Below are positions 5,792 to 55,996 of a stretch of 64,000 nt of DNA, piece by piece. The translations under genes and the position numbers were made by a program. This DNA is from Fidelibacterota bacterium (lineage in GTDB: Bacteria; Fidelibacterota; Marinisomatia; Marinisomatales; JABMOV01). The DNA lies in assembly GCA_046861395.1 (NCBI GenBank), contig JBHHUC010000005.1, forward strand, positions 4,948-68,947, given 5' to 3'. The first letter of the stretch is position 1; the number at the start of each line of letters is the position of its first letter. The notes under the pieces were generated by a model. The model was given only the letters and a program-made list of their open reading frames with translations, ran no database searches and had not been told where the DNA came from.

Positions 5792-7138
5792 TTAAAGCAG
5801 AGCCTGAGCCCGCTCAATATTGCCTGTTTTCCCGTAAAGCCCAATCAATATTTTCTTGATGCGGTCGTTCTTGGGATTTTGTGTATACAGATTTTCAAAC
5901 AGGGGCAGGGCTTGTTGAAATTTTTCCTGCTTGATGCGGGTAATGCCCAGCAATTCCGTGTATGATTCATCCTCCAGGATGGAGGTTCCGGCACTTGTCA
6001 ATACTTTTTCCAGGGCTGTCAGGTTATTGGTTTCCTGATAGAGATGAATAAGCCGGTTTATAATTTCACGATGATTCGGGCGTTTTTGTAACAATTCTTC
6101 ATATAGGTCAATGGCATTGGGGGCATTTCCCAGATCGGAATACAAACCGGCCAGGGTGAATTTTATTTTTTCGTCGGGAATCAGGATATCGGTGGAAACC
6201 CGTTTTTTTTGCCCTTTCAGTTGCCGGGTTACCCGCAATAGTTTTTTCAGATAAAGAACGGCCTTTTCCGGCTGCTGATCTTTAAGAGCCAGTTTATATT
6301 GTAAATAATACCCGGCGGCCTGTACCGGCTGCAGGCTCAGCGATTTCCGGATATATTTTTTTGCTTCCTGATATTTTCCCAGTGCAAACAGTGTTTCACT
6401 GTAAGTATTATACAGGGAGACGGTCATTTTTTTATCAAATTGTTTCAACGCGACGGCTCGCTCATAGTGTCCCAGAGCCTTATCATAATCCCGGTTAATT
6501 GCCAGATGCTGGGCCAGAGTATAATGTGCATAGGCACTTTTGGGATTTTCCTCTACCTGTTGCAATAACAAATTCCGGTTCCGTTCGTTTTTGGCCGCCG
6601 CCTTGCCACCGGAATAGTTGTAACCCGTATGGTACAATACAATGTTGGATTCCCGTTCCACGCCGCCCAGACGAACCACACTGGGAGACACCTGTTCGTG
6701 AATCCGTCCGATAAAATAGATTCCCTTGAAATTATTGAATAGCCGATGGGCCCCGGACAAGGAATAGGTTCCGTCGCGCTTTATGTTTTGGATTTGCACA
6801 CCGTAGATGACGGGGGACTTTTCTTCCCTGAGCAGTGACAGCAACTCTTTCTGTGATTTTTCCATTAATGTTTCATCGGCATCCAGCCACAGAATCCAAT
6901 CTCCGGTGGCATAGGAAATGGACGTATTCCGGGCCGCCGAAAAATCATCAATCCAGCGAAAAGAGTACACCTCGGCCCCATGTTCCCGCGCAATGGCCAC
7001 CGTTCGGTCGGTTGAACCCGTATCGACAACAACAATTTGATCCGCCACCGGGCGAACGCTGGCCAGACAATCTCCCAGGCATGATTCTTCGTTCTTAACG
7101 ATTAGACAGACGGACAGTGTTTGACGTTTGAGTGTCAT
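5792..7138 (-). CDS. family-2 glycosyltransferase fused to C-terminal TPR repeats
   Basis: The N-terminus 'SVCLIVKNEE...VVVDTGSTDRT...DDFSAARN...LWLDADE' carries the GT2 DxD-type signature. The C-terminal ~250 aa has repeated TPR-like 'A..Y....L......A' units. Confidence 0.85.
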   Translation of the reverse strand: MTLKRQTLSVCLIVKNEESCLGDCLASVRPVADQIVVVDTGSTDRTVAIAREHGAEVYSFRWIDDFSAARNTSISYATGDWILWLDADETLMEKSQKELLSLLREEKSPVIYGVQIQNIKRDGTYSLSGAHRLFNNFKGIYFIGRIHEQVSPSVVRLGGVERESNIVLYHTGYNYSGGKAAAKNERNRNLLLQQVEENPKSAYAHYTLAQHLAINRDYDKALGHYERAVALKQFDKKMTVSLYNTYSETLFALGKYQEAKKYIRKSLSLQPVQAAGYYLQYKLALKDQQPEKAVLYLKKLLRVTRQLKGQKKRVSTDILIPDEKIKFTLAGLYSDLGNAPNAIDLYEELLQKRPNHREIINRLIHLYQETNNLTALEKVLTSAGTSILEDESYTELLGITRIKQEKFQQALPLFENLYTQNPKNDRIKKILIGLYGKTGNIERAQALL

Positions 7139-8001
7139 GGTGTATGGTTCAGATTTTTCAATTTGGTTTCAATGGCCTCAATCACGGCCGCTACTGTAAT
7201 GTTCTTTTGACATTTGACGGCGTAAGGACAGGGTTCTTTTCGGTGAACGGCAATAGCATTGTATTCACGGTAACAGGGTGAACAGTCTTCGCCTGACCAT
7301 AAATTTGTGGCCGTGGGATAACCGGAACCTACGGGGCTGGTGCTGCCGAAAATGACAACCGCCGGTTTCTTAAATGCCCCCGCTACATGATTGGGAAAAC
7401 TGTCAATGCCCAGAAAAAGGTCTGACTCCGCAACGCAGGCCGCGCTGAGCCGGATATTCATTACGCCGTTCATGGTGACGGCATTTTTCAGGACCGGCTC
7501 ATTCCGGCCACCGATCTGAATAAACACCAAGCGACCGAAAAAATGATTCACGACTTGCTGCCAGTTTTCAACCGGCCACTCCTTATAGGGCGACCATCCG
7601 GCTTTGATATGGATTGTGGCGACGGGAAGCGGAGAAAATTTCCGTACCAGGGTCCGGGCAAAGGAACGTTCGCTCTTGGTGAAGCATATCCGGCCGGCAA
7701 TTTCCATCACCGGTATTCCATTTGACCGAGCAAATTCCCGGGCCAGATGATCCTGCAACGGAACATCTGGATAACCGTCTTTCACGGGATACTCGAACCA
7801 GACCGTACGATTCGCCTCAAGATTCACGGGAGAAATTTCATCAATGTCGGGATTTTCCAACAGAAGATCGGGATTCATGGTGACAAATCGGATCAAGGCA
7901 TCCGGGTGCTTCTGTCGCAGGGCTCGAACGGCAGGTGTGGTCATCAGAACATCACCGATGGCACCGGCACGGCAGCATTCAATGACATAGGGACGCGACA
8001 T
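7135..8001 (-). CDS. GT9 (heptosyltransferase-like) glycosyltransferase
   Basis: 'RAGAIGDVLMTTPAVRALRQKHPDA' is the typical GT9 N-terminal motif, and 'GIDSFPNHVAGAF' matches the C-terminal motif. The ORF is open to 8091, but Met at 8001 ('MSRPYVIE') avoids overlapping the upstream gene. Confidence 0.75.
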   Translation of the reverse strand: MSRPYVIECCRAGAIGDVLMTTPAVRALRQKHPDALIRFVTMNPDLLLENPDIDEISPVNLEANRTVWFEYPVKDGYPDVPLQDHLAREFARSNGIPVMEIAGRICFTKSERSFARTLVRKFSPLPVATIHIKAGWSPYKEWPVENWQQVVNHFFGRLVFIQIGGRNEPVLKNAVTMNGVMNIRLSAACVAESDLFLGIDSFPNHVAGAFKKPAVVIFGSTSPVGSGYPTATNLWSGEDCSPCYREYNAIAVHRKEPCPYAVKCQKNITVAAVIEAIETKLKNLNHTP

Positions 8002-8008
8002 CGTGCAT

Positions 8009-8785
8009 CTACGTTTTTTCATATCCCAGATGTTCCAGAGTGGGGCCGATAGCAGATTGAAAATAATCACAATCTGCGGTAGATAATTCATGACGATAAC
8101 GGCCTGAGATTCCGGGTCCGGGCTGGATCACATTGTGTTGCCGGTTAGGACGGACAGGTGTTTTCAATGGCTTGCCTAAGAAAATGCTCATTTTTTCAAC
8201 CGTAGCATTGAATTCATCGTTTAGGTCTTCATACTGCAGAACAAATATTTCCTCTTTCGGTCGCGTAGCGGCGAAAGACAACCAACCCCGCACATGAGAT
8301 TCCCAGCGGTGAAGGACCGTGGGTTCCTGTTCTTTCTGATAGCGCAACATGGCGCCCCGGGGAGCCGAACGGATAAATTCACCGACAGATGAACAGTTCG
8401 GACCTTCATCCCATCCTCGGGCATGACCATGATTTATCAGGTGCCAATTACTGAGCATCGTATCCCGGGGGTCACGATAGATATAAAAAATTTGAAACTG
8501 CGAACAGAAATAATCGGCAAAGGGTTTAATAAAAGCAACCGGATGATGTGATTTCAGGACATTGATTACCGGTTTATTGTGTACCTGTCGAAAATAGTTC
8601 TCCAGGCTTTCTGTTGCGTGGAAATTCAAGCCCTGTTCAAAATCCAGATTCCACCAAGGCTTGGCGATATAACCGAAATTCTCCGCCAGTGTATTCATTA
8701 AGAAATGTGTCCCCGACCGTTCGTGACTGATGACGGCAACCTTCTTCTGCGGTTCCGGACTCAGACTCAGCGTTAATTGGGGCAT
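8009..8785 (-). CDS. sulfotransferase-domain protein
   Basis: The 5'-PSB-like loop is 'VISHERSGTHFLMNTL'. The 3'-PB-like motif is 'IYRDPRDTMLS'. The size (258 aa) fits a stand-alone PAPS-dependent sulfotransferase. Confidence 0.75.
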   Translation of the reverse strand: MPQLTLSLSPEPQKKVAVISHERSGTHFLMNTLAENFGYIAKPWWNLDFEQGLNFHATESLENYFRQVHNKPVINVLKSHHPVAFIKPFADYFCSQFQIFYIYRDPRDTMLSNWHLINHGHARGWDEGPNCSSVGEFIRSAPRGAMLRYQKEQEPTVLHRWESHVRGWLSFAATRPKEEIFVLQYEDLNDEFNATVEKMSIFLGKPLKTPVRPNRQHNVIQPGPGISGRYRHELSTADCDYFQSAIGPTLEHLGYEKT

Positions 8786-8800
8786 GGGTATTCTACCTGT

Positions 8801-9922
8801 CTATCCGGTCTGAAAGATGTCGGCATATTTCTCTTTATAGGCCGGGTCGCGTCGATCGGCCATTGTAAATAATGATGCTGCTTTTTGTTCATCTCCCATT
8901 GCTTGTACTATCATTGCCATTTGATGATAGGCCCCGCCATTTTGGGGGTCCAGCCTTAAGATTTTTTTGACACATTCGAGAGCATGAGCCGTTTTTCCTG
9001 ACGCGCGATATACAATGGAAAGGATTAATAAAGCCATTTGATCTATCGGGTTTGTTAAAAGGACGGAGTACAGCAGGTTTTTTGCATCGTTAAGTTTATC
9101 GTCTCTCAAATATTTTAATGACATTTGGCATCGTTTTTTATTCCTGTCCACCAATTGTTCAGATTTTTCCATGAATTTATCATAGTCAATATTGGGCCAT
9201 TTTTGTTTGAATTTTTCTTTTGTTTCTTTTAAACTCTGCTTGTAGTCAATATTATTTTCCATAAAGGTTCTACTTCCGTAGTGATGGATAAAGACGCTCT
9301 CATCACACATTAGTGAAAAACCTTTATTTCGATACCTAATACAAAGATCATCGTCTTCGTAGTTACCCGTTCCTAAAGTCTCATCAAAACCTCCCACCAT
9401 AAAATATTCATTCTTTCTAGCAATTATTGCAAACCCTGCTAGCCGATTGCGTGGAGTTAATTTTCCCTTATTTACTATTCTTATTTTATTGGCAAACTCC
9501 TGAAACTTGTCTCCCCTGTATGGCAATCTTTTTACCATTTGTCTACCACTTATGTAGTTTGTAATCGGGCCAACCAGACCAATTTGAGGATCTTTTTCAA
9601 TGGACGCAACTAAAGATGTTAACCAGTTTTCTGCGACTGTTACATCGTTGTTAAGGAATAACAGGTACTTGCCGGTTGCAATTCTTGCCCCTTGATTATT
9701 TGCTGCTGAGAACCCACGGTTATCTTTATTAAATATTAATTGTACATTCTTGTGATTCTCCTTAACCTCTTCTAAATAATTCTTTGTTCCATCGCGTGAT
9801 CCATTATCAACAATTATGAGTTCAAATTCTGATTGATCCGTATGCTTATAAATAGATTCAATACATTTGATTGTAAACAACTTTGCATTTAACGTGAGAA
9901 TAATTATTGATGTTTTATTCAA
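8801..9922 (-). CDS. family-2 glycosyltransferase fused to C-terminal TPR repeats
   Basis: 'IIILTLN...LIIVDNGSRDGT...NRGFSAANNQG...LFLNNDV...EDDDLC' are GT2 signatures. The C-terminal ~100 aa is TPR-like. The gene lies in the AT-rich segment. Confidence 0.85.
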   Translation of the reverse strand: MNKTSIIILTLNAKLFTIKCIESIYKHTDQSEFELIIVDNGSRDGTKNYLEEVKENHKNVQLIFNKDNRGFSAANNQGARIATGKYLLFLNNDVTVAENWLTSLVASIEKDPQIGLVGPITNYISGRQMVKRLPYRGDKFQEFANKIRIVNKGKLTPRNRLAGFAIIARKNEYFMVGGFDETLGTGNYEDDDLCIRYRNKGFSLMCDESVFIHHYGSRTFMENNIDYKQSLKETKEKFKQKWPNIDYDKFMEKSEQLVDRNKKRCQMSLKYLRDDKLNDAKNLLYSVLLTNPIDQMALLILSIVYRASGKTAHALECVKKILRLDPQNGGAYHQMAMIVQAMGDEQKAASLFTMADRRDPAYKEKYADIFQTG

Positions 9923-9923
9923 T

Positions 9924-11678
9924 TTATTGATTCCTTAATCGAATTGTTTTTTTTAGAGATAATTGAGAAATATGATATATTTTATTATCGTTTTCTGTCA
10001 TCTTTTTAGACAGATCTACAAACCACAAATCATCTTTATACGGTTTCATGGAATAATGTTTGTTCCTTAGAGCAAAATATTCCGGAATAACACAATCAAT
10101 TGGTTTGAGCTGAAAATTATTAATTGTATTTCTCTTGGCCCTTAATTCAATTAAATCAGAATTAGCAAACTTATATCCATATTTTACTTCCGTTTTTGTG
10201 ATGATATTCCCACTAATTGCATTTGCTTTTTCAAGCTTCATAAAAAGCCTGTTAATTAATTGATGTTCATTGTACTTATCAATAAACCTGTAGTTGATAT
10301 TATTAACAATAATATATTTCGAGCGTGAACCGAGAATACTTTCAATAATACCAATAGAGATGTCATAAGAATCGACTACTTTTACAACTTCTTTTAATTT
10401 CGCCACTGAGGCTTCATCAAACAATCCGCGCTTTAAAACTATTATATTTTTTATACTATTAGACCCATTAGCCAGAAGGTCCAAGCAGTAATCGTAATAA
10501 TCCTCAATTTTTTCGCTTCCGTAAATAATTTTCGTTACCATACTATTGTGTATCTTTACCTTAAAATCATATTGTTTTAACTTTATGTTTATAGTTCTGA
10601 GATGAGTATCATCCAGGTGCATTCTCAAAAGTCTTAATTTTAATATATTATTGAGTCTCTCATTAATATGACCTTTTACAAGTTCTTGCCAATATCCTTT
10701 ACCCCAATAGTATCGCATTATAAAGTCATAGGATTTAAACAATTTTTTTATTTCCCTGAAGGAATTCAATTCATATTGATTTATTTGCCCACCATGCAAG
10801 GCTTTTAACCAAACACCTTGATAGTCAGGAATTTTTTCTATGGCTTTTTCGAGTATCTCTATTTTTTCAAATTCATTTATTAATTCTAAATCGGAAATAC
10901 TTAAATATGATTTAAGTAATAAATCCAGATTACTTATTTCATCCTCAAAACCTGGATGCATTTTTGATAATTTTACAACGCTTGCACCAGCTTTTTCTTG
11001 TCGTGATAAAAAGTTGTTTAAGTAAATAATATGGTTATGATAACCAACAGCATTCGCATTAAAAACTATCCTGGTGTCACTTAGTTTTAGCCGGATTGCC
11101 AGTTCGGTGTCTTGTGATCCAAATGGTAATGATTCCTGGAATAAACCGATTTTCATAATTACTTCCCGCTTCATTGAAACATTCGGCGCATATAAAAACT
11201 GTGGTGGTACATCTTGATGATTTTTAATTTGGTAATAGGCGAATTGCCAACCACCATTTACAGAATAAAACATAAAAGGACTGATTGCTATGTTCTTTGC
11301 GTATGGTAAATAACCCAGTACAACTATTTCTTCATTAGCGTAATCAGAGTGTGTTGTTAAATGTTCAGATATTAGTTTTCTATCAAAAATAATGTCTTGT
11401 GCAGAAAATAATAAATATTCTCCGCGGGCATTTTTTATAGCAGAATTTGTTGCAGCAGACTGCCCGCTCTTTAAATGTTTTATCATTTTAAAGGAAAATT
11501 GGTATTTACTGTTTAAATATTTTTCATAAGTCCCATCCGTTGATCCATCATCGCATACAACAACTTCAACCTTATCCATGTTAAAATTATTTTTTGCGAT
11601 TGAATTCAATGTATCACCAAGCAGGTTAATACCATTAAAGCTCGGAATAATAATACTGATTAAAGGTCGGTCATTCAT
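9924..11678 (-). CDS. family-2 glycosyltransferase with long uncharacterised C-terminal region
   Basis: The N-terminus 'ISIIIPSFNG...VVVCDDGSTDGT...GQSAATNSAIKNARGEYLLFSAQD' is GT2. The remaining ~350 aa has no motif I recognise. The DNA is very AT-rich. Confidence 0.8.
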   Translation of the reverse strand: MNDRPLISIIIPSFNGINLLGDTLNSIAKNNFNMDKVEVVVCDDGSTDGTYEKYLNSKYQFSFKMIKHLKSGQSAATNSAIKNARGEYLLFSAQDIIFDRKLISEHLTTHSDYANEEIVVLGYLPYAKNIAISPFMFYSVNGGWQFAYYQIKNHQDVPPQFLYAPNVSMKREVIMKIGLFQESLPFGSQDTELAIRLKLSDTRIVFNANAVGYHNHIIYLNNFLSRQEKAGASVVKLSKMHPGFEDEISNLDLLLKSYLSISDLELINEFEKIEILEKAIEKIPDYQGVWLKALHGGQINQYELNSFREIKKLFKSYDFIMRYYWGKGYWQELVKGHINERLNNILKLRLLRMHLDDTHLRTINIKLKQYDFKVKIHNSMVTKIIYGSEKIEDYYDYCLDLLANGSNSIKNIIVLKRGLFDEASVAKLKEVVKVVDSYDISIGIIESILGSRSKYIIVNNINYRFIDKYNEHQLINRLFMKLEKANAISGNIITKTEVKYGYKFANSDLIELRAKRNTINNFQLKPIDCVIPEYFALRNKHYSMKPYKDDLWFVDLSKKMTENDNKIYHISQLSLKKTIRLRNQ

Positions 11679-12822
11679 TGATTACTGTATTGATTTGTTG
11701 TTCCAGCCTACTTGCTTCCGCACTTTGTTCTCCAATACGCCCATTCTGATTATTCCCGACTCGAATAAAAGTATTGGGTTTCGCGATATCGGTTTGATGT
11801 GTGCTTAGAATATCTGTTAACCATCCGGGATATAATCCTTCAAATGATTCCATAAATACAATTACTTCACCTTTCATGTATGATTTAGTACTGTTTATGA
11901 TGAAATCACAAGATTTGTCTTGAGAATGCTTAAAGTCAATATGTCGAATGGTTCTCCGATTGACTTTTATTAAATATTCACATGTTCCATCCGTGGAATA
12001 ATTATCAATAAATAAAACCTCGAAGCTTGGATATTTCGTATTCTTGAGGATTGATTTTGTACACTCATGAGTATATAAAAGTTGATTATATACCGGAATA
12101 ACAATGGATACCAAGGGGTGGGTGTTTTTTACATCAACCTGGGAATGGTCTAGCTTTGGATCAATAACATTTTTTGCGATTGAGCTGAGTTTTTTCTCTA
12201 TCCTCAGAAATTGTTGTATTTTTCCCACTGCCTCCTTAAATGCCTCTCCTAATAAATTCTCATAATTGATATGTATATTTTCATATCCTTCAGCAAAATG
12301 GTCTGCTTGAGAGTTATATTTATCATATAGTTTCCCCGCTTTTTCCCGCGTAAAGCTATCGCGTCGTACCAATGATTTTATCACCGATTCTCGATCTCGA
12401 ATTATTCTGATAATTTTCATATCAGGAGGTAAAAGGTCTTTCCACACCGGGAAGGTTAAACACAGACGCGGATCTTTAATTGCCGCTTGTTTCTTGTCTT
12501 TATAACACTCCAACAACGATTTAATTAATGGATCTATTCGTATACTCTTGACATCCTCTGAATCTGGTGGATCATCCCACGTCCCACCTGCCATCTTTAA
12601 TATTATATCATTGGCCTCCATTACACTATTGCGCTCAAAATATCCCTTGGGATTATCCGGGGTAGATTTCATCAAATCATTATCATCGCTCACATAAAAT
12701 CCGGCCTCATGAAGAATGTTCATCATCATTGATGTACCGCTGCGATGCATTCCCAAGACTATTACAAACTTTTTTGTTTGATATTTTTCTTGTGATTTTA
12801 CTTTTTGCAAAGAATATCCCAT
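11671..12822 (-). CDS. sulfotransferase-glycosyltransferase (GT2) fusion protein
   Basis: The N-terminal half has 'VIVLGMHRSGTSMMMNIL' (PSB loop) and 'IIRDRESVIKSL' (3'-PB-like). The C-terminal half has 'VSIVIPVYNQ...VLFIDNYSTDGT' (GT2 start). Confidence 0.7.
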   Translation of the reverse strand: MGYSLQKVKSQEKYQTKKFVIVLGMHRSGTSMMMNILHEAGFYVSDDNDLMKSTPDNPKGYFERNSVMEANDIILKMAGGTWDDPPDSEDVKSIRIDPLIKSLLECYKDKKQAAIKDPRLCLTFPVWKDLLPPDMKIIRIIRDRESVIKSLVRRDSFTREKAGKLYDKYNSQADHFAEGYENIHINYENLLGEAFKEAVGKIQQFLRIEKKLSSIAKNVIDPKLDHSQVDVKNTHPLVSIVIPVYNQLLYTHECTKSILKNTKYPSFEVLFIDNYSTDGTCEYLIKVNRRTIRHIDFKHSQDKSCDFIINSTKSYMKGEVIVFMESFEGLYPGWLTDILSTHQTDIAKPNTFIRVGNNQNGRIGEQSAEASRLEQQINTVINE

Positions 12823-51882: not shown

Positions 51883-52074
51883 TCATTGTTTTTGTTCCCA
51901 ATCATCCGTTTTTTCGCCGGGCTGAAACAGATTTAACAACGCCTGACGATAAAACCTCCATTGACCGCCGATCTTTACAGCAGGGATTTTGCCTTCATGA
52001 ATCAACTTGTACATGGTTCGTTCCTTGATGCCAAGGAAAACGCAGGCTTCTTTTATGTTTAATATTTGATTCAT
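51883..52074 (-). CDS. excisionase/MerR-type helix-turn-helix protein (paralog 1)
   Basis: 'LNIKEACVFLGIKERTMYKLIHEGKIPAVKIGGQWRF' is the HTH_17 pattern. The start is set at 'MNQILNIKEA' (52074), because the longer ORF (to 52113) would begin 8 nt from the sigma28 -10 box. Confidence 0.75.
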   Translation of the reverse strand: MNQILNIKEACVFLGIKERTMYKLIHEGKIPAVKIGGQWRFYRQALLNLFQPGEKTDDWEQKQ

Positions 52075-52120
52075 CTGTTTTCTGCCTCGGTCCTTTCGCC
52101 GTAATCCGGTCATACTCTTA

Positions 52121-52147
52121 CCATCGGTGAAAACGGGTAAATCTTTA
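52121..52147 (-). promoter_or_regulatory. sigma28 (FliA) promoter for HTH-motA-motB
   Basis: The minus strand reads TAAAGATT-N11-ACCGATGG, against the consensus TAAAGTTT-N11-GCCGATAA. Confidence 0.65.
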
Positions 52148-52297
52148 ACTTTTTTGCAGAATTTTGAACAAATTAACGGTAGAACAACCTTAGTCGCAGG
52201 ACATTGCAGAACATTGCCGGTTTTAAGATGGTGAATGATCCAAAATACAGGGGCGGAAAGAGGTTATGTCTGAAATGTAAGAATCGATTTTGAGCTC

Positions 52298-55171: not shown

Positions 55172-55996
55172 TTAGAATAAGGACAGAACGACTTGCGGCG
55201 AAGAATTCGCCTGAACCAGAGAGGCTACCGCAGTCTGCTGTAATATCTGTAGCTTCATCACCTCCATCTGTTCTTTCGCGAAGTCAGCATCCTCAATCAC
55301 GCTACGCGCCGACTCCGTATTCGTAATGGCCACCGCCAGGTTTGATTCCTTGGCCGAGAGGCGGGATTTGAATTCTCCCACATCCTGGACACGACCGGCC
55401 AGGGTGTCAATTGCCGTGCTAAGGGTGCTGATGGCGGCACTGGCACTGGCAGCCGATGATACATTCACACTGTCGATACTGAGATCAGCTGAATCAGCAC
55501 CATTCAAGGTAACCGACAATTCATCCGTTGCACCTTCGCCAGTATGGAATGCTTTACTAGAATAGGATCCATCAATGAGCGCGGTTCCGTTAAAGGATGT
55601 TTCAGTTACGATCGCGTCTATTTCCGAAATCAGAGCGCTGACCTGGTCGTTGATGGCTGAACGCTGGGTGCTGGACAAAGACACATCCGAGGCCTGGGTG
55701 GCCTTTTCCTTCATGGTCTGCAATAGATCCATGATGGTTTGATAACCACCTTCCGCAATGTTCAATACATTCTTGGCCGTACCGACATTTGCCAGGGCCA
55801 CTTCCAGTCCACGACGACGACGTTCCAAACCGCGTGCGATCTGGTAGCCGGCTGGGTCCTCTTCCGTGGAGTTGATTCGTTTACCGGTTGCAAGACGTAA
55901 TTGTCGCATTGCAATCTTGCCATTAATATCCGAGAGTGAACTCAGAGACTGCATCGCCGGAACATTGGCGCCGATTTTTGTTAAGTCACTAGCCAT
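55172..55996 (-). CDS. fliC: flagellin (short form), copy 1
   Basis: The N-terminus is 'LRLATGKRINSTEEDPAGYQIARGL...' and the C-terminus 'DADFAKEQMEVMKLQILQQTAVASLVQAN.SPQVVLSLF'. The start at 55996 (MASDL) is preceded by AAGGAG, though the ORF is open to 56056. Confidence 0.93.
   Translation of the reverse strand: MASDLTKIGANVPAMQSLSSLSDINGKIAMRQLRLATGKRINSTEEDPAGYQIARGLERRRRGLEVALANVGTAKNVLNIAEGGYQTIMDLLQTMKEKATQASDVSLSSTQRSAINDQVSALISEIDAIVTETSFNGTALIDGSYSSKAFHTGEGATDELSVTLNGADSADLSIDSVNVSSAASASAAISTLSTAIDTLAGRVQDVGEFKSRLSAKESNLAVAITNTESARSVIEDADFAKEQMEVMKLQILQQTAVASLVQANSSPQVVLSLF

Follow-up and report, generated by a model that had tools for sequence, protein, structure and literature searches.

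What are two small proteins of the excisionase type doing inside late flagellar operons? The question is raised by a 64 kb stretch of a Fidelibacterota (Marinimicrobia) contig (the window; positions below are its own), in which all genes discussed lie on the minus strand. Here a flagellin gene is followed, and a motA-motB pair is preceded, by a short gene for a helix-turn-helix (HTH) protein:

56459-56265, minus: HTH2, 64 amino acids (aa), Pfam HTH_17 at 1.7e-14, flagellin-linked subfamily
52074-51883, minus: HTH1, 63 aa, Pfam HTH_17 at 1.2e-15, subfamily linked to chemotaxis and motility (che/mot) genes

We conclude that the two genes represent a real, undescribed, lineage-specific flagellar-regulon family in two subfamilies, for which we infer a regulatory function. 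The family is distributed over Fidelibacterota and Calditrichota, with probable relatives in Eisenbacteria-like metagenome-assembled genomes (MAGs).

Both proteins scored well above the cut-offs of Pfam HTH_17 (57.9 bits for HTH1 and 54.2 for HTH2; cut-off 27) and of the TIGR01764 excisionase domain (54.7 and 50.2 bits; cut-off 28.8), and a Pfam profile scan found this single domain only. They are 47% identical over 49 residues (E = 3e-17), and the shared core quoted in an earlier sequence-only reading of this DNA was correct. The strongest conservation in the family falls on T21, Y23, K35 and G37-G38-Q39-W40, that is on the recognition helix and wing, the pattern expected for DNA contact. The recognition-helix signature is RTMY in HTH1 and QT[VI]Y in HTH2. 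An in-frame ATG at 52113, upstream of the HTH1 start, coincides with the predicted transcription start; position 52074 (MNQILNI) is the start of the HTH1 homologues and of the NCBI gene call, and is most likely the true one. HTH2 has 73 homologues at 65-94% identity, for the most part from Marinimicrobia. Identical records of both proteins, from a Fidelibacterota (Marinimicrobia) MAG, are named merely "helix-turn-helix domain-containing protein", and NCBIfam offers only the generic excisionase-domain model for them. Two more specific names were rejected: MAD1 of the MADS anti-phage system (NF047737; 60.4 and 50.9 bits, below the equivalog cut-off of 80) and MamR, also under its equivalog cut-off. 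No defence gene adjoins HTH1 or HTH2 among the annotated neighbours. The identical HTH2 protein (P0005) stands under two NCBI accessions, one of them a "Desulfobacterales bacterium" MAG, whereas the HTH1 record of this contig names Fidelibacterota; binning or labelling probably differs between the assemblies.

The two units, the genes between them and the sigma factor gene are laid out as follows:

57447-57420, minus: flaA-HTH2 promoter, TAAAGTTT-N11-TCCGATGT, strict sigma-28 motif match
57344-56505, minus: flagellin flaA, heading the bicistron (Flagellin_N 1.6e-26, Flagellin_C 1e-16)
56242-56216, minus: intrinsic terminator closing flaA-HTH2, 12-bp stem with 6 GC pairs, then the T-run TTTTTATC
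56132-56105, minus: flaB promoter, TAAAGGGC-N11-TCCGATAA, strict motif match
55996-55172, minus: flagellin flaB, monocistronic, likely start MASDLTKIG at 55996
55146-55119, minus: flaB terminator
55098-55073, minus: looser sigma-28-like site, TAAAGAAT-N11-GACGATAT (TAAAGAATTACGAAAAAGCGACGATA), ahead of fliS-fliD-flgN-like-flgM
55000-54680, minus: fliS (Pfam FliS)
54669-53188, minus: fliD, by homology and position in related loci
53185-52772, minus: flgN-like gene, by homology and position in related loci
52768-52298, minus: flgM (Pfam FlgM)
52147-52120, minus: HTH1-motA-motB promoter, TAAAGATT-N11-ACCGATGG, strict motif match
51855-51061, minus: motA (Pfam MotA_ExbB)
51055-50237, minus: motB (Pfam MotB_plug and OmpA)
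25453-24683, minus: FliA, sigma-28 (TIGR02479 FliA_WhiG, 193.1 bits, cut-off 189.6)

HTH2 is the second gene of its bicistron, separated from flaA by 45 nucleotides (nt) without a terminator and followed by the strong stem and T-run. HTH1 is the first gene of its unit, with motA co-oriented 27 nt further on and then motB, and the fliS-fliD-flgN-like-flgM block (55000-52298) stands just upstream of it. The motif TAAAG-N15-CCGAT occurs exactly three times in the 64 kb, in each case on the minus strand and immediately before flaA, flaB or HTH1. In shuffled sequence its mean count was 0.20, and none of 100 shuffles reached three. The FliA gene, which adjoins one for an FlhG-like ATPase, encodes the factor expected to read these three sigma-28-type promoters. 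The sequence-only reading had assigned just these positions to the two genes in their units and had quoted a FliA-type promoter for each; both promoters are present, and all three strict motifs stand ahead of late operons in a window that encodes FliA. The two features by which membership of the regulon was judged, a promoter of the TAAA-N15-GCCGATAA type upstream and an encoded FliA, were thus both found.

The association extends far beyond the window. A scan of one genome per species with the family alignment gave 80 loci (loci are given L numbers below), in which flagellar genes were located by tblastn with the window's own proteins as queries. A sigma-28 position weight matrix (PWM), trained on the flagellin promoters of the same loci, was used on upstream regions. 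Counting was restricted to the 60 species-level loci with a copy at least 50% identical to HTH2 (58% or more, one excepted). These hold 67 family copies, 64 of HTH2 type and 3 of HTH1 type, placed as follows:

36 copies: at most 300 nt downstream of a flagellin gene, same strand
5 copies: after fliS, in a fla-fliS-HTH-fla-fliD block
4 copies: flagellar genes elsewhere in the locus
3 copies: HTH1-type
17 copies: solo, flagellar genes absent within 8 kb, sigma-28 PWM match
2 copies: solo, neither signal, on short Calditrichota contigs

Thus 65 of the 67 copies lie in a flagellar cluster (48) or stand solo with a sigma-28-type promoter of their own (17). Every one of these 17 solo genes has its PWM match 100-290 nt upstream at p <= 0.027, against a background itself rich in genuine sigma-28 promoters; L022, for example, carries TAAAGCTT-N11-TCCGATAT amid unrelated housekeeping genes. 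MAGs with a solo copy mostly hold a flagellin-linked copy too, on another contig. Some loci contain up to nine flagellin genes, and L014 and L021 have several fla-HTH2 cassettes in one locus. Together with the HTH1 loci described below, these counts give a strongly positive answer on whether homologues are systematically linked to flagellin or motAB genes, which the sequence-only reading had proposed as a check.

The spacer between flagellin gene and HTH2 has a median of 64 nt over 36 distinct intergenic regions. It often consists of a GC-rich hairpin without a U-tract followed by a strong Shine-Dalgarno sequence, an arrangement compatible with attenuated read-through into HTH2. Such hairpins (e.g. 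GGGGAGG-loop-CCTCCCC) were seen in L013, L016, L019, L024, L027-L029, L045, L060 and L061 and could be leaky terminators or 3' stabilisers of the flagellin mRNA that set the HTH2:flagellin ratio; the 45-nt spacer of the window has no GC-rich hairpin. The leaders of solo HTH2 genes, 100-200 nt long, share a conserved CCACATA box and a possible GTGGT/ACCAC pairing before the AAGGA ribosome-binding site (L033, L036, L038, L039, L041, L043, L044, L034, L035, L047 and L057). RNAalifold on a MAFFT alignment of these leaders gave no consensus pairs.

HTH1 has an equally regular setting. In 7 of 7 context look-ups it belongs to the late flagellar cluster and precedes a che/mot operon, and it has the same place in about ten informative metagenome loci as well as in L012, L014, L023 and L084. 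The metagenome scan with the HTH1 profile was swamped by an HTH_17-PTS_EIIA_2 fusion, which left about 12 of 80 loci informative. HTH1-type genes are usually found downstream of flgM, directly so in L003, L005-L008 and L174; in the remaining loci other genes or a long gap intervene. Two arrangements recur. One is HTH-motAB or HTH-(REC-HD-GYP)-motAB, and the other is HTH-HDOD-cheR-cheY-cheZ-HD-GYP-motAB or a variant with cheA. A sigma-28-like motif stands 53-66 nt before the HTH1 start codon in 15 of the 17 promoters examined; a strict regular expression misses the window's own HTH1 promoter and that of L001, both of which carry variant sites. Genes for REC-HD-GYP, HD-GYP or HDOD proteins often occur between HTH1 and motAB (L095:7226-8581, L176:6269-7612, L003:10263-14117, L174:6280-10212), which suggests that cyclic di-GMP signalling is built into the late stator/chemotaxis operon of lineages carrying HTH1.

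A neighbour-joining tree of 84 distinct sequences, low in resolution at about 63 columns, separates a che/mot clade from a flagellin/solo clade and both from the outgroups. As a control, 20 outgroup HTH_17 copies were taken from Omnitrophota, Gemmatimonadota, the HTH_17-PTS_EIIA_2 fusion and Alphaproteobacteria, these last of GGSWRF type and with a sigma-70-like promoter. None of the 20 had a flagellar gene in its locus, and 1 of 20 had a PWM match. This match was in L082, which, like its relative L076, is Eisenbacteria-like; both carry TAAAGAT-N-GCCGATTA and may be true members of the family. The fusion protein, 237 aa long (L105-L173, e.g. L115:7001-7714), reaches extreme abundance in sediment metagenomes; its first 50 residues hardly vary (MESYLTAKEAAEYLKLAERTLVRLAHEGKIPGVKIGGQWRFRRALLDEYL) and it shows no flagellar link. 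Taken together, promoters and gene context indicate that the HTH1/HTH2 family very probably belongs to the late flagellar (sigma-28) regulon.

What the proteins do there is best approached from their fold. An AlphaFold2 model of HTH2 built on the family alignment has a predicted local distance difference test score (pLDDT) of 91. It shows a short strand, two helices, a two-stranded wing containing the invariant K-x-G-G-Q-W, and a 20-residue C-terminal helix. In a Foldseek search of the PDB the BldC-DNA complexes 6ama and 6amk ranked first (template modelling score 0.67-0.81, root-mean-square deviation 1.4-2.5 A), and further matches were RacA, P2 Cox, Pukovnik Xis, Tn916 Xis, RdfS, TraN and the MerR N-domain. 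These matches are all DNA-binding MerR-like winged helices, several of which oligomerise on repeats. The proteins are not classical MerR regulators, as they end after the one 20-residue helix and have neither an effector domain nor a coiled-coil. They share instead the BldC architecture, a small stand-alone MerR-like winged helix of about 65 aa without effector or classical coiled-coil domain. BldC, a developmental regulator of Streptomyces, is a documented cellular transcription factor of mini-protein size that binds head-to-tail on phased direct repeats (PMC5859096). It differs in having no known link to flagella or sigma-28, in its repeat unit (AATT-N4-C), and in its C-terminal helix, which in HTH2 is longer and highly conserved (residues 44-63). 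Identity to BldC in the structural alignment is 14-17%. DNA binding is established for BldC; HTH1 and HTH2 are likely to be DNA-binding regulators.

A candidate operator was found for HTH1. When the HTH1 promoters of at least four divergent lineages were aligned on the -35 element, YTGCAR hexamers (TTGCAA, CTGCAA, TTGCAG) appeared near -23 and -13, with a further copy at +7 within the spacer in many lineages (positions relative to the -35); the sequence around them is not conserved. The 15 HTH1 promoters contained 1.73 TGCA[AG] per 92 nt, whereas 65 other sigma-28-like sites had 0.09, about 19-fold less, and the background had 0.18. An unbiased 6-mer scan returned TGCAAA in 8 of 10 HTH1 promoters (p = 3e-11, a value inflated by the partly shared descent of the promoter sequences). 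In the 160 nt ahead of HTH1, phased pairs (spaced by 9-11 or 19-22 nt) had 58 times the density found in the rest of these loci, where the few that occur lie mostly within coding sequence. In the window the candidate sites are:

52209-52204 and 52199-52194, minus: CTGCAA and CTGCGA, 10-nt spacing
52159-52154, minus: CTGCAA, at -13 from the HTH1 -35 element

Only two other phased YTGCAR pairs occur in the window, both inside flagellin coding sequence. Out of sample, two of four loci carried the motif: L174, with CTGCAA at -23, and L176, with three YTGCAA spaced 10 and 19 nt; L175 and L177 (a 78-aa variant) had none. A reading as the -12 element of a sigma-54 promoter was rejected, since GG is missing at -24 and the spacing of 9-10 nt differs from the 11 of such promoters. 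The motif is absent from flagellin and HTH2 promoters, and its restriction to HTH1 promoters fits the subfamily-specific recognition helices, RTMY versus QT[VI]Y. Head-to-tail binding of the BldC kind would suit the phased arrangement, and the overlap of the hexamers with the -35 and spacer would suggest autorepression. That HTH1 acts on YTGCAR at its own promoter is nonetheless a proposal we make tentatively.

For HTH2 neither 6-mer enrichment at solo-HTH2 and flagellin promoters nor a phased exact-repeat scan yielded a convincing operator, and confidence in any specific HTH2 target is low. What emerged were AT-rich boxes of the TTTATC type, which failed to set one class of promoter apart from another. 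Three copies of TTTTATCA upstream of flaB in the window are anecdotal.

The explanation we prefer, and consider reasonably probable, is that of a sigma-28-tier, BldC/Xis-like family giving transcriptional feedback from late flagellar assembly. HTH1 and HTH2 would be produced only after FliA becomes active, HTH1 as the first product of the late chemotaxis/stator operon and HTH2 by read-through from the flagellin gene or, when solo, from its own sigma-28 promoter. Binding DNA sequence-specifically through wing and recognition helix, and having no effector domain, they would report the late assembly stage back to transcription. HTH1 would bind the helically phased YTGCAR sites at its own sigma-28 promoter, which flank the -35/spacer and in many lineages extend into it, and so autoregulate che/mot expression, most simply by repression. 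HTH2, given its different recognition-helix signature, would be expected to recognise other sites.

A broader form of this explanation is a new class of flagellar regulator: BldC-like mini winged helices hard-wired into the sigma-28 tier across Fidelibacterota and Calditrichota, serving phylum-wide as late-stage checkpoint reporters. Here HTH1 on the phased YTGCAR over the late che/mot -35 would set the dosage of stator and chemotaxis proteins. HTH2, dosed by flagellin transcription, would close a second feedback loop on flagellin choice or on earlier tiers, parallel to FliW-CsrA, and an excisionase-type fold would have been domesticated. We regard this broader form as conceivable, somewhat short of an even chance. 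Of the class-III flagellar regulator that the sequence-only reading had proposed, membership of the late regulon and novelty are borne out as far as computation can test them, and regulation itself is what we infer. No curated family describes a flagellar link, and full-text literature searches found no report of HTH_17 or excisionase-type proteins linked to flagellar operons; the sole co-occurrence with motility was a feature list in a machine-learning motility study, and the Marinimicrobia papers found do not mention such a link. The fold, and the idea of a regulator inside late flagellar operons, are already known. What is new is the family with its sigma-28 wiring and its two context-specific branches, together with the YTGCAR element.

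Several points weigh against the preferred explanation. The sigma-28 assignment consists of consensus matches, and the p-value given above for YTGCAR is inflated. Similarity to BldC is not significant at the sequence level (PDB profile search, 6ama at E = 0.71, 13 bits). Only variants of the YTGCAR motif, or none, are found in L094, L099, L084, L175 and L177. In L176 the repeats immediately precede the start codon and no sigma-28 promoter can be recognised, which would allow a role at the RNA level or of another kind; YTGCAR could also be bound by a different factor. On the HTH2 side, TTTATC is only about 2-fold enriched over local composition at flagellin promoters and does not discriminate between flagellin genes lying before and after HTH2. 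All source genomes are MAGs of uncultured organisms, and cluster look-ups gave MAG-derived proteins only.

Among the alternatives, the one that survives best is that the two proteins are sigma-28-driven output regulators whose main targets are non-flagellar genes coordinated with motility (adhesion, surface, cyclic di-GMP), in the manner of FliZ. Such targets would accord with the failure to find an HTH2 operator at flagellar promoters, with the 17 solo copies that keep sigma-28 promoters amid unrelated housekeeping genes, and with the frequent HD-GYP or HDOD proteins of HTH1 operons, which tie these to cyclic di-GMP signalling. There is also a precedent, since FliZ, from the fliAZ operon of enterobacteria, is a DNA-binding regulator within the flagellar hierarchy that feeds back on the hierarchy and has global targets in other regulons (PMC3814329). 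HTH1 and HTH2 would resemble it as DNA-binding regulators encoded inside that hierarchy, although FliZ has another fold and operon, is co-transcribed with fliA rather than with flagellin or stator genes, and is known from Proteobacteria only. YTGCAR is, however, specific to HTH1's own promoter, with phased pairs elsewhere mostly in coding sequence, and the tight fla-HTH2 cassette, duplicated as a unit in L014 and L021, points to a flagellin-centred role. We consider output regulation unlikely. The DNA-binding domain of FliZ itself resembles part of the phage recombination machinery.

A flagellin-centred role could also take the form of flagellin choice, HTH2 shutting down or favouring the other flagellin paralogue through its promoter or mRNA leader. 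The layout of the window and of most loci (flagellin, small regulator, terminator, then immediately a second flagellin with its own promoter) matches that of fljB-fljA in Salmonella; the HTH2 gene lies immediately downstream of a flagellin gene in one unit, which would tie its dose to that flagellin, and loci with up to nine flagellin genes hold several such cassettes (L021, L014). FljA, encoded next to fljB, prevents translation of fliC mRNA (PMC2652032). Yet no motif separates flagellin genes downstream of HTH2 from upstream ones, the solo and fliS-linked copies misfit a strict cassette model, and HTH2 has 64 aa against about 173-179 aa for FljA. The fljBA operon is moreover under the Hin invertible switch, of which none is evident in the window, whereas the HTH family also has solo and stator-linked members. 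We regard an FljA-like role as improbable.

Less probable still is action by protein-protein contact or as a component of DNA architecture, in the way that RacA and Xis shape or anchor DNA; CheY-like proteins, REC-HD-GYP proteins, FliA or FlgM would be possible partners. Excisionase TorI, which inhibits the response regulator TorR, would be the model for the former, and the fold is shared with proteins of DNA architecture (RacA, Xis, Cox and the pSK1 Par protein). The HTH1 gene mostly stands downstream of flgM, with genes for REC-domain proteins as neighbours, and HTH2 output would scale with a very abundant mRNA. Conservation, however, peaks in the two elements that would touch DNA, the recognition helix and the wing, and HTH1 promoters carry a phased cis element.

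Finally, that the two genes (as excisionases or recombination directionality factors) are relics left by chance in a flagellar region by a prophage or integrative element has a negligible chance of being right. Their Pfam, TIGR01764 and PHROG matches are to excisionase families, and by sequence the nearest structure in the PDB is that of a mycobacteriophage Xis (4j2n, E = 0.0012). But one gene order is repeated across dozens of species-level genomes at 60-80% protein identity, the flagellar context is conserved in more than 60 genomes, the sigma-28 promoters are conserved, only five viral relatives (30-39% identity) were found among 2.9 million viral contigs, no integrase or transposase occurs among the annotated open reading frames (ORFs; the scan covered part of those in the window), and the window has no tRNA gene. 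The excisionase hits in PHROG and among PDB sequences stem from the common domain alone. With Pukovnik Xis, Tn916 Xis, RdfS and P2 Cox the two proteins have the Pfam/TIGR domain family and the fold in common; they differ in being chromosomal and fixed in flagellar operons across the phylum, and neither HTH1 nor HTH2 has an integrase partner, attachment site or mobile element beside it among annotated ORFs. By context the two proteins do not belong to the functional class of excisionases, which are encoded in mobile elements beside their integrase and attachment sites, and conserved chromosomal context rules out a prophage origin as far as sequence analysis reaches. The sequence-only reading, which had noted the absence of mobile-element genes nearby and had named prophage remnants among the findings that would overturn its proposal, is upheld on both counts.

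Flagellar gene hierarchies are well mapped in Proteobacteria and Firmicutes; to our knowledge they are almost unknown in those phyla of the Fibrobacterota-Chlorobiota-Bacteroidota (FCB) group that dominate much of the dark ocean and sediments. If the preferred explanation is right, the flagellar toolkit would gain a new type of regulator, with branches tied to flagellin and to the stator/chemotaxis operon, and the excisionase/MerR-like mini-fold would provide a further case, after BldC, of use in cellular regulation. Hundreds of genes labelled "excisionase family DNA-binding protein" could receive a more accurate name. The predicted operator, YTGCAR at 52154-52209 and its equivalents, is testable in vitro without culturing the organism.

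The window also encodes the pair fliW (14117-13659, minus) and csrA (about 13635-13384, minus), located after flgL. The flagellin leaders (57400-57345 and 56100-55997) contain GGA boxes, often in hairpin loops (GACAAGGAAGTC, TAACAAGGAAGTT), the GACAAGGAAGTC box lying in the flaA 5' untranslated region. GGATGC (z = 18) and CAAGGA (z = 13) were the most over-represented 6-mers upstream of flagellin genes in related loci. Genes and boxes probably represent the known CsrA-FliW flagellin homeostasis circuit. Like the proposed HTH loops, this circuit couples flagellin level to late flagellar gene control, but it is RNA-binding and post-transcriptional and consists of unrelated proteins. Its presence in the window means that the HTH proteins would be an additional layer rather than a replacement. 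No Rfam family was found in the window.

A further sigma-28-type site, TAAAGAAATGGGAAAGATCGCCGATAAT, is conserved in related loci shortly before flgM, inside the flgN-like gene at its 3' end (L013:12438, L016:10920, L056:12340, L032:11395, L042:11682, L049:11472, L012:6270 and others). It resembles an internal late promoter for the anti-sigma factor FlgM; no strict equivalent was found in the window. The genes that directly follow motB encode a REC-HisKA protein and a second REC protein (50080-48373), and a sigma-54-dependent response regulator (REC-AAA-Fis HTH; 48360-46990) stands ahead of the rod genes flgB, flgC and fliE, which suggests a two-tier hierarchy, sigma-54 then sigma-28. Directly downstream of fliA, in the flagellar cluster, two ORFs of 264 and 101 aa (24473-23679 and 23682-23377, minus) have no Pfam or NCBIfam match. 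Beside the flagellar cluster lies a block of TPR-glycosyltransferase (GT2) and sulfotransferase genes (5792-12822, minus), and in L003 (71-3567) a similar TPR-sulfotransferase and GT2-TPR pair directly precedes a flagellin gene. The block may encode machinery for flagellin glycosylation or sulfation.

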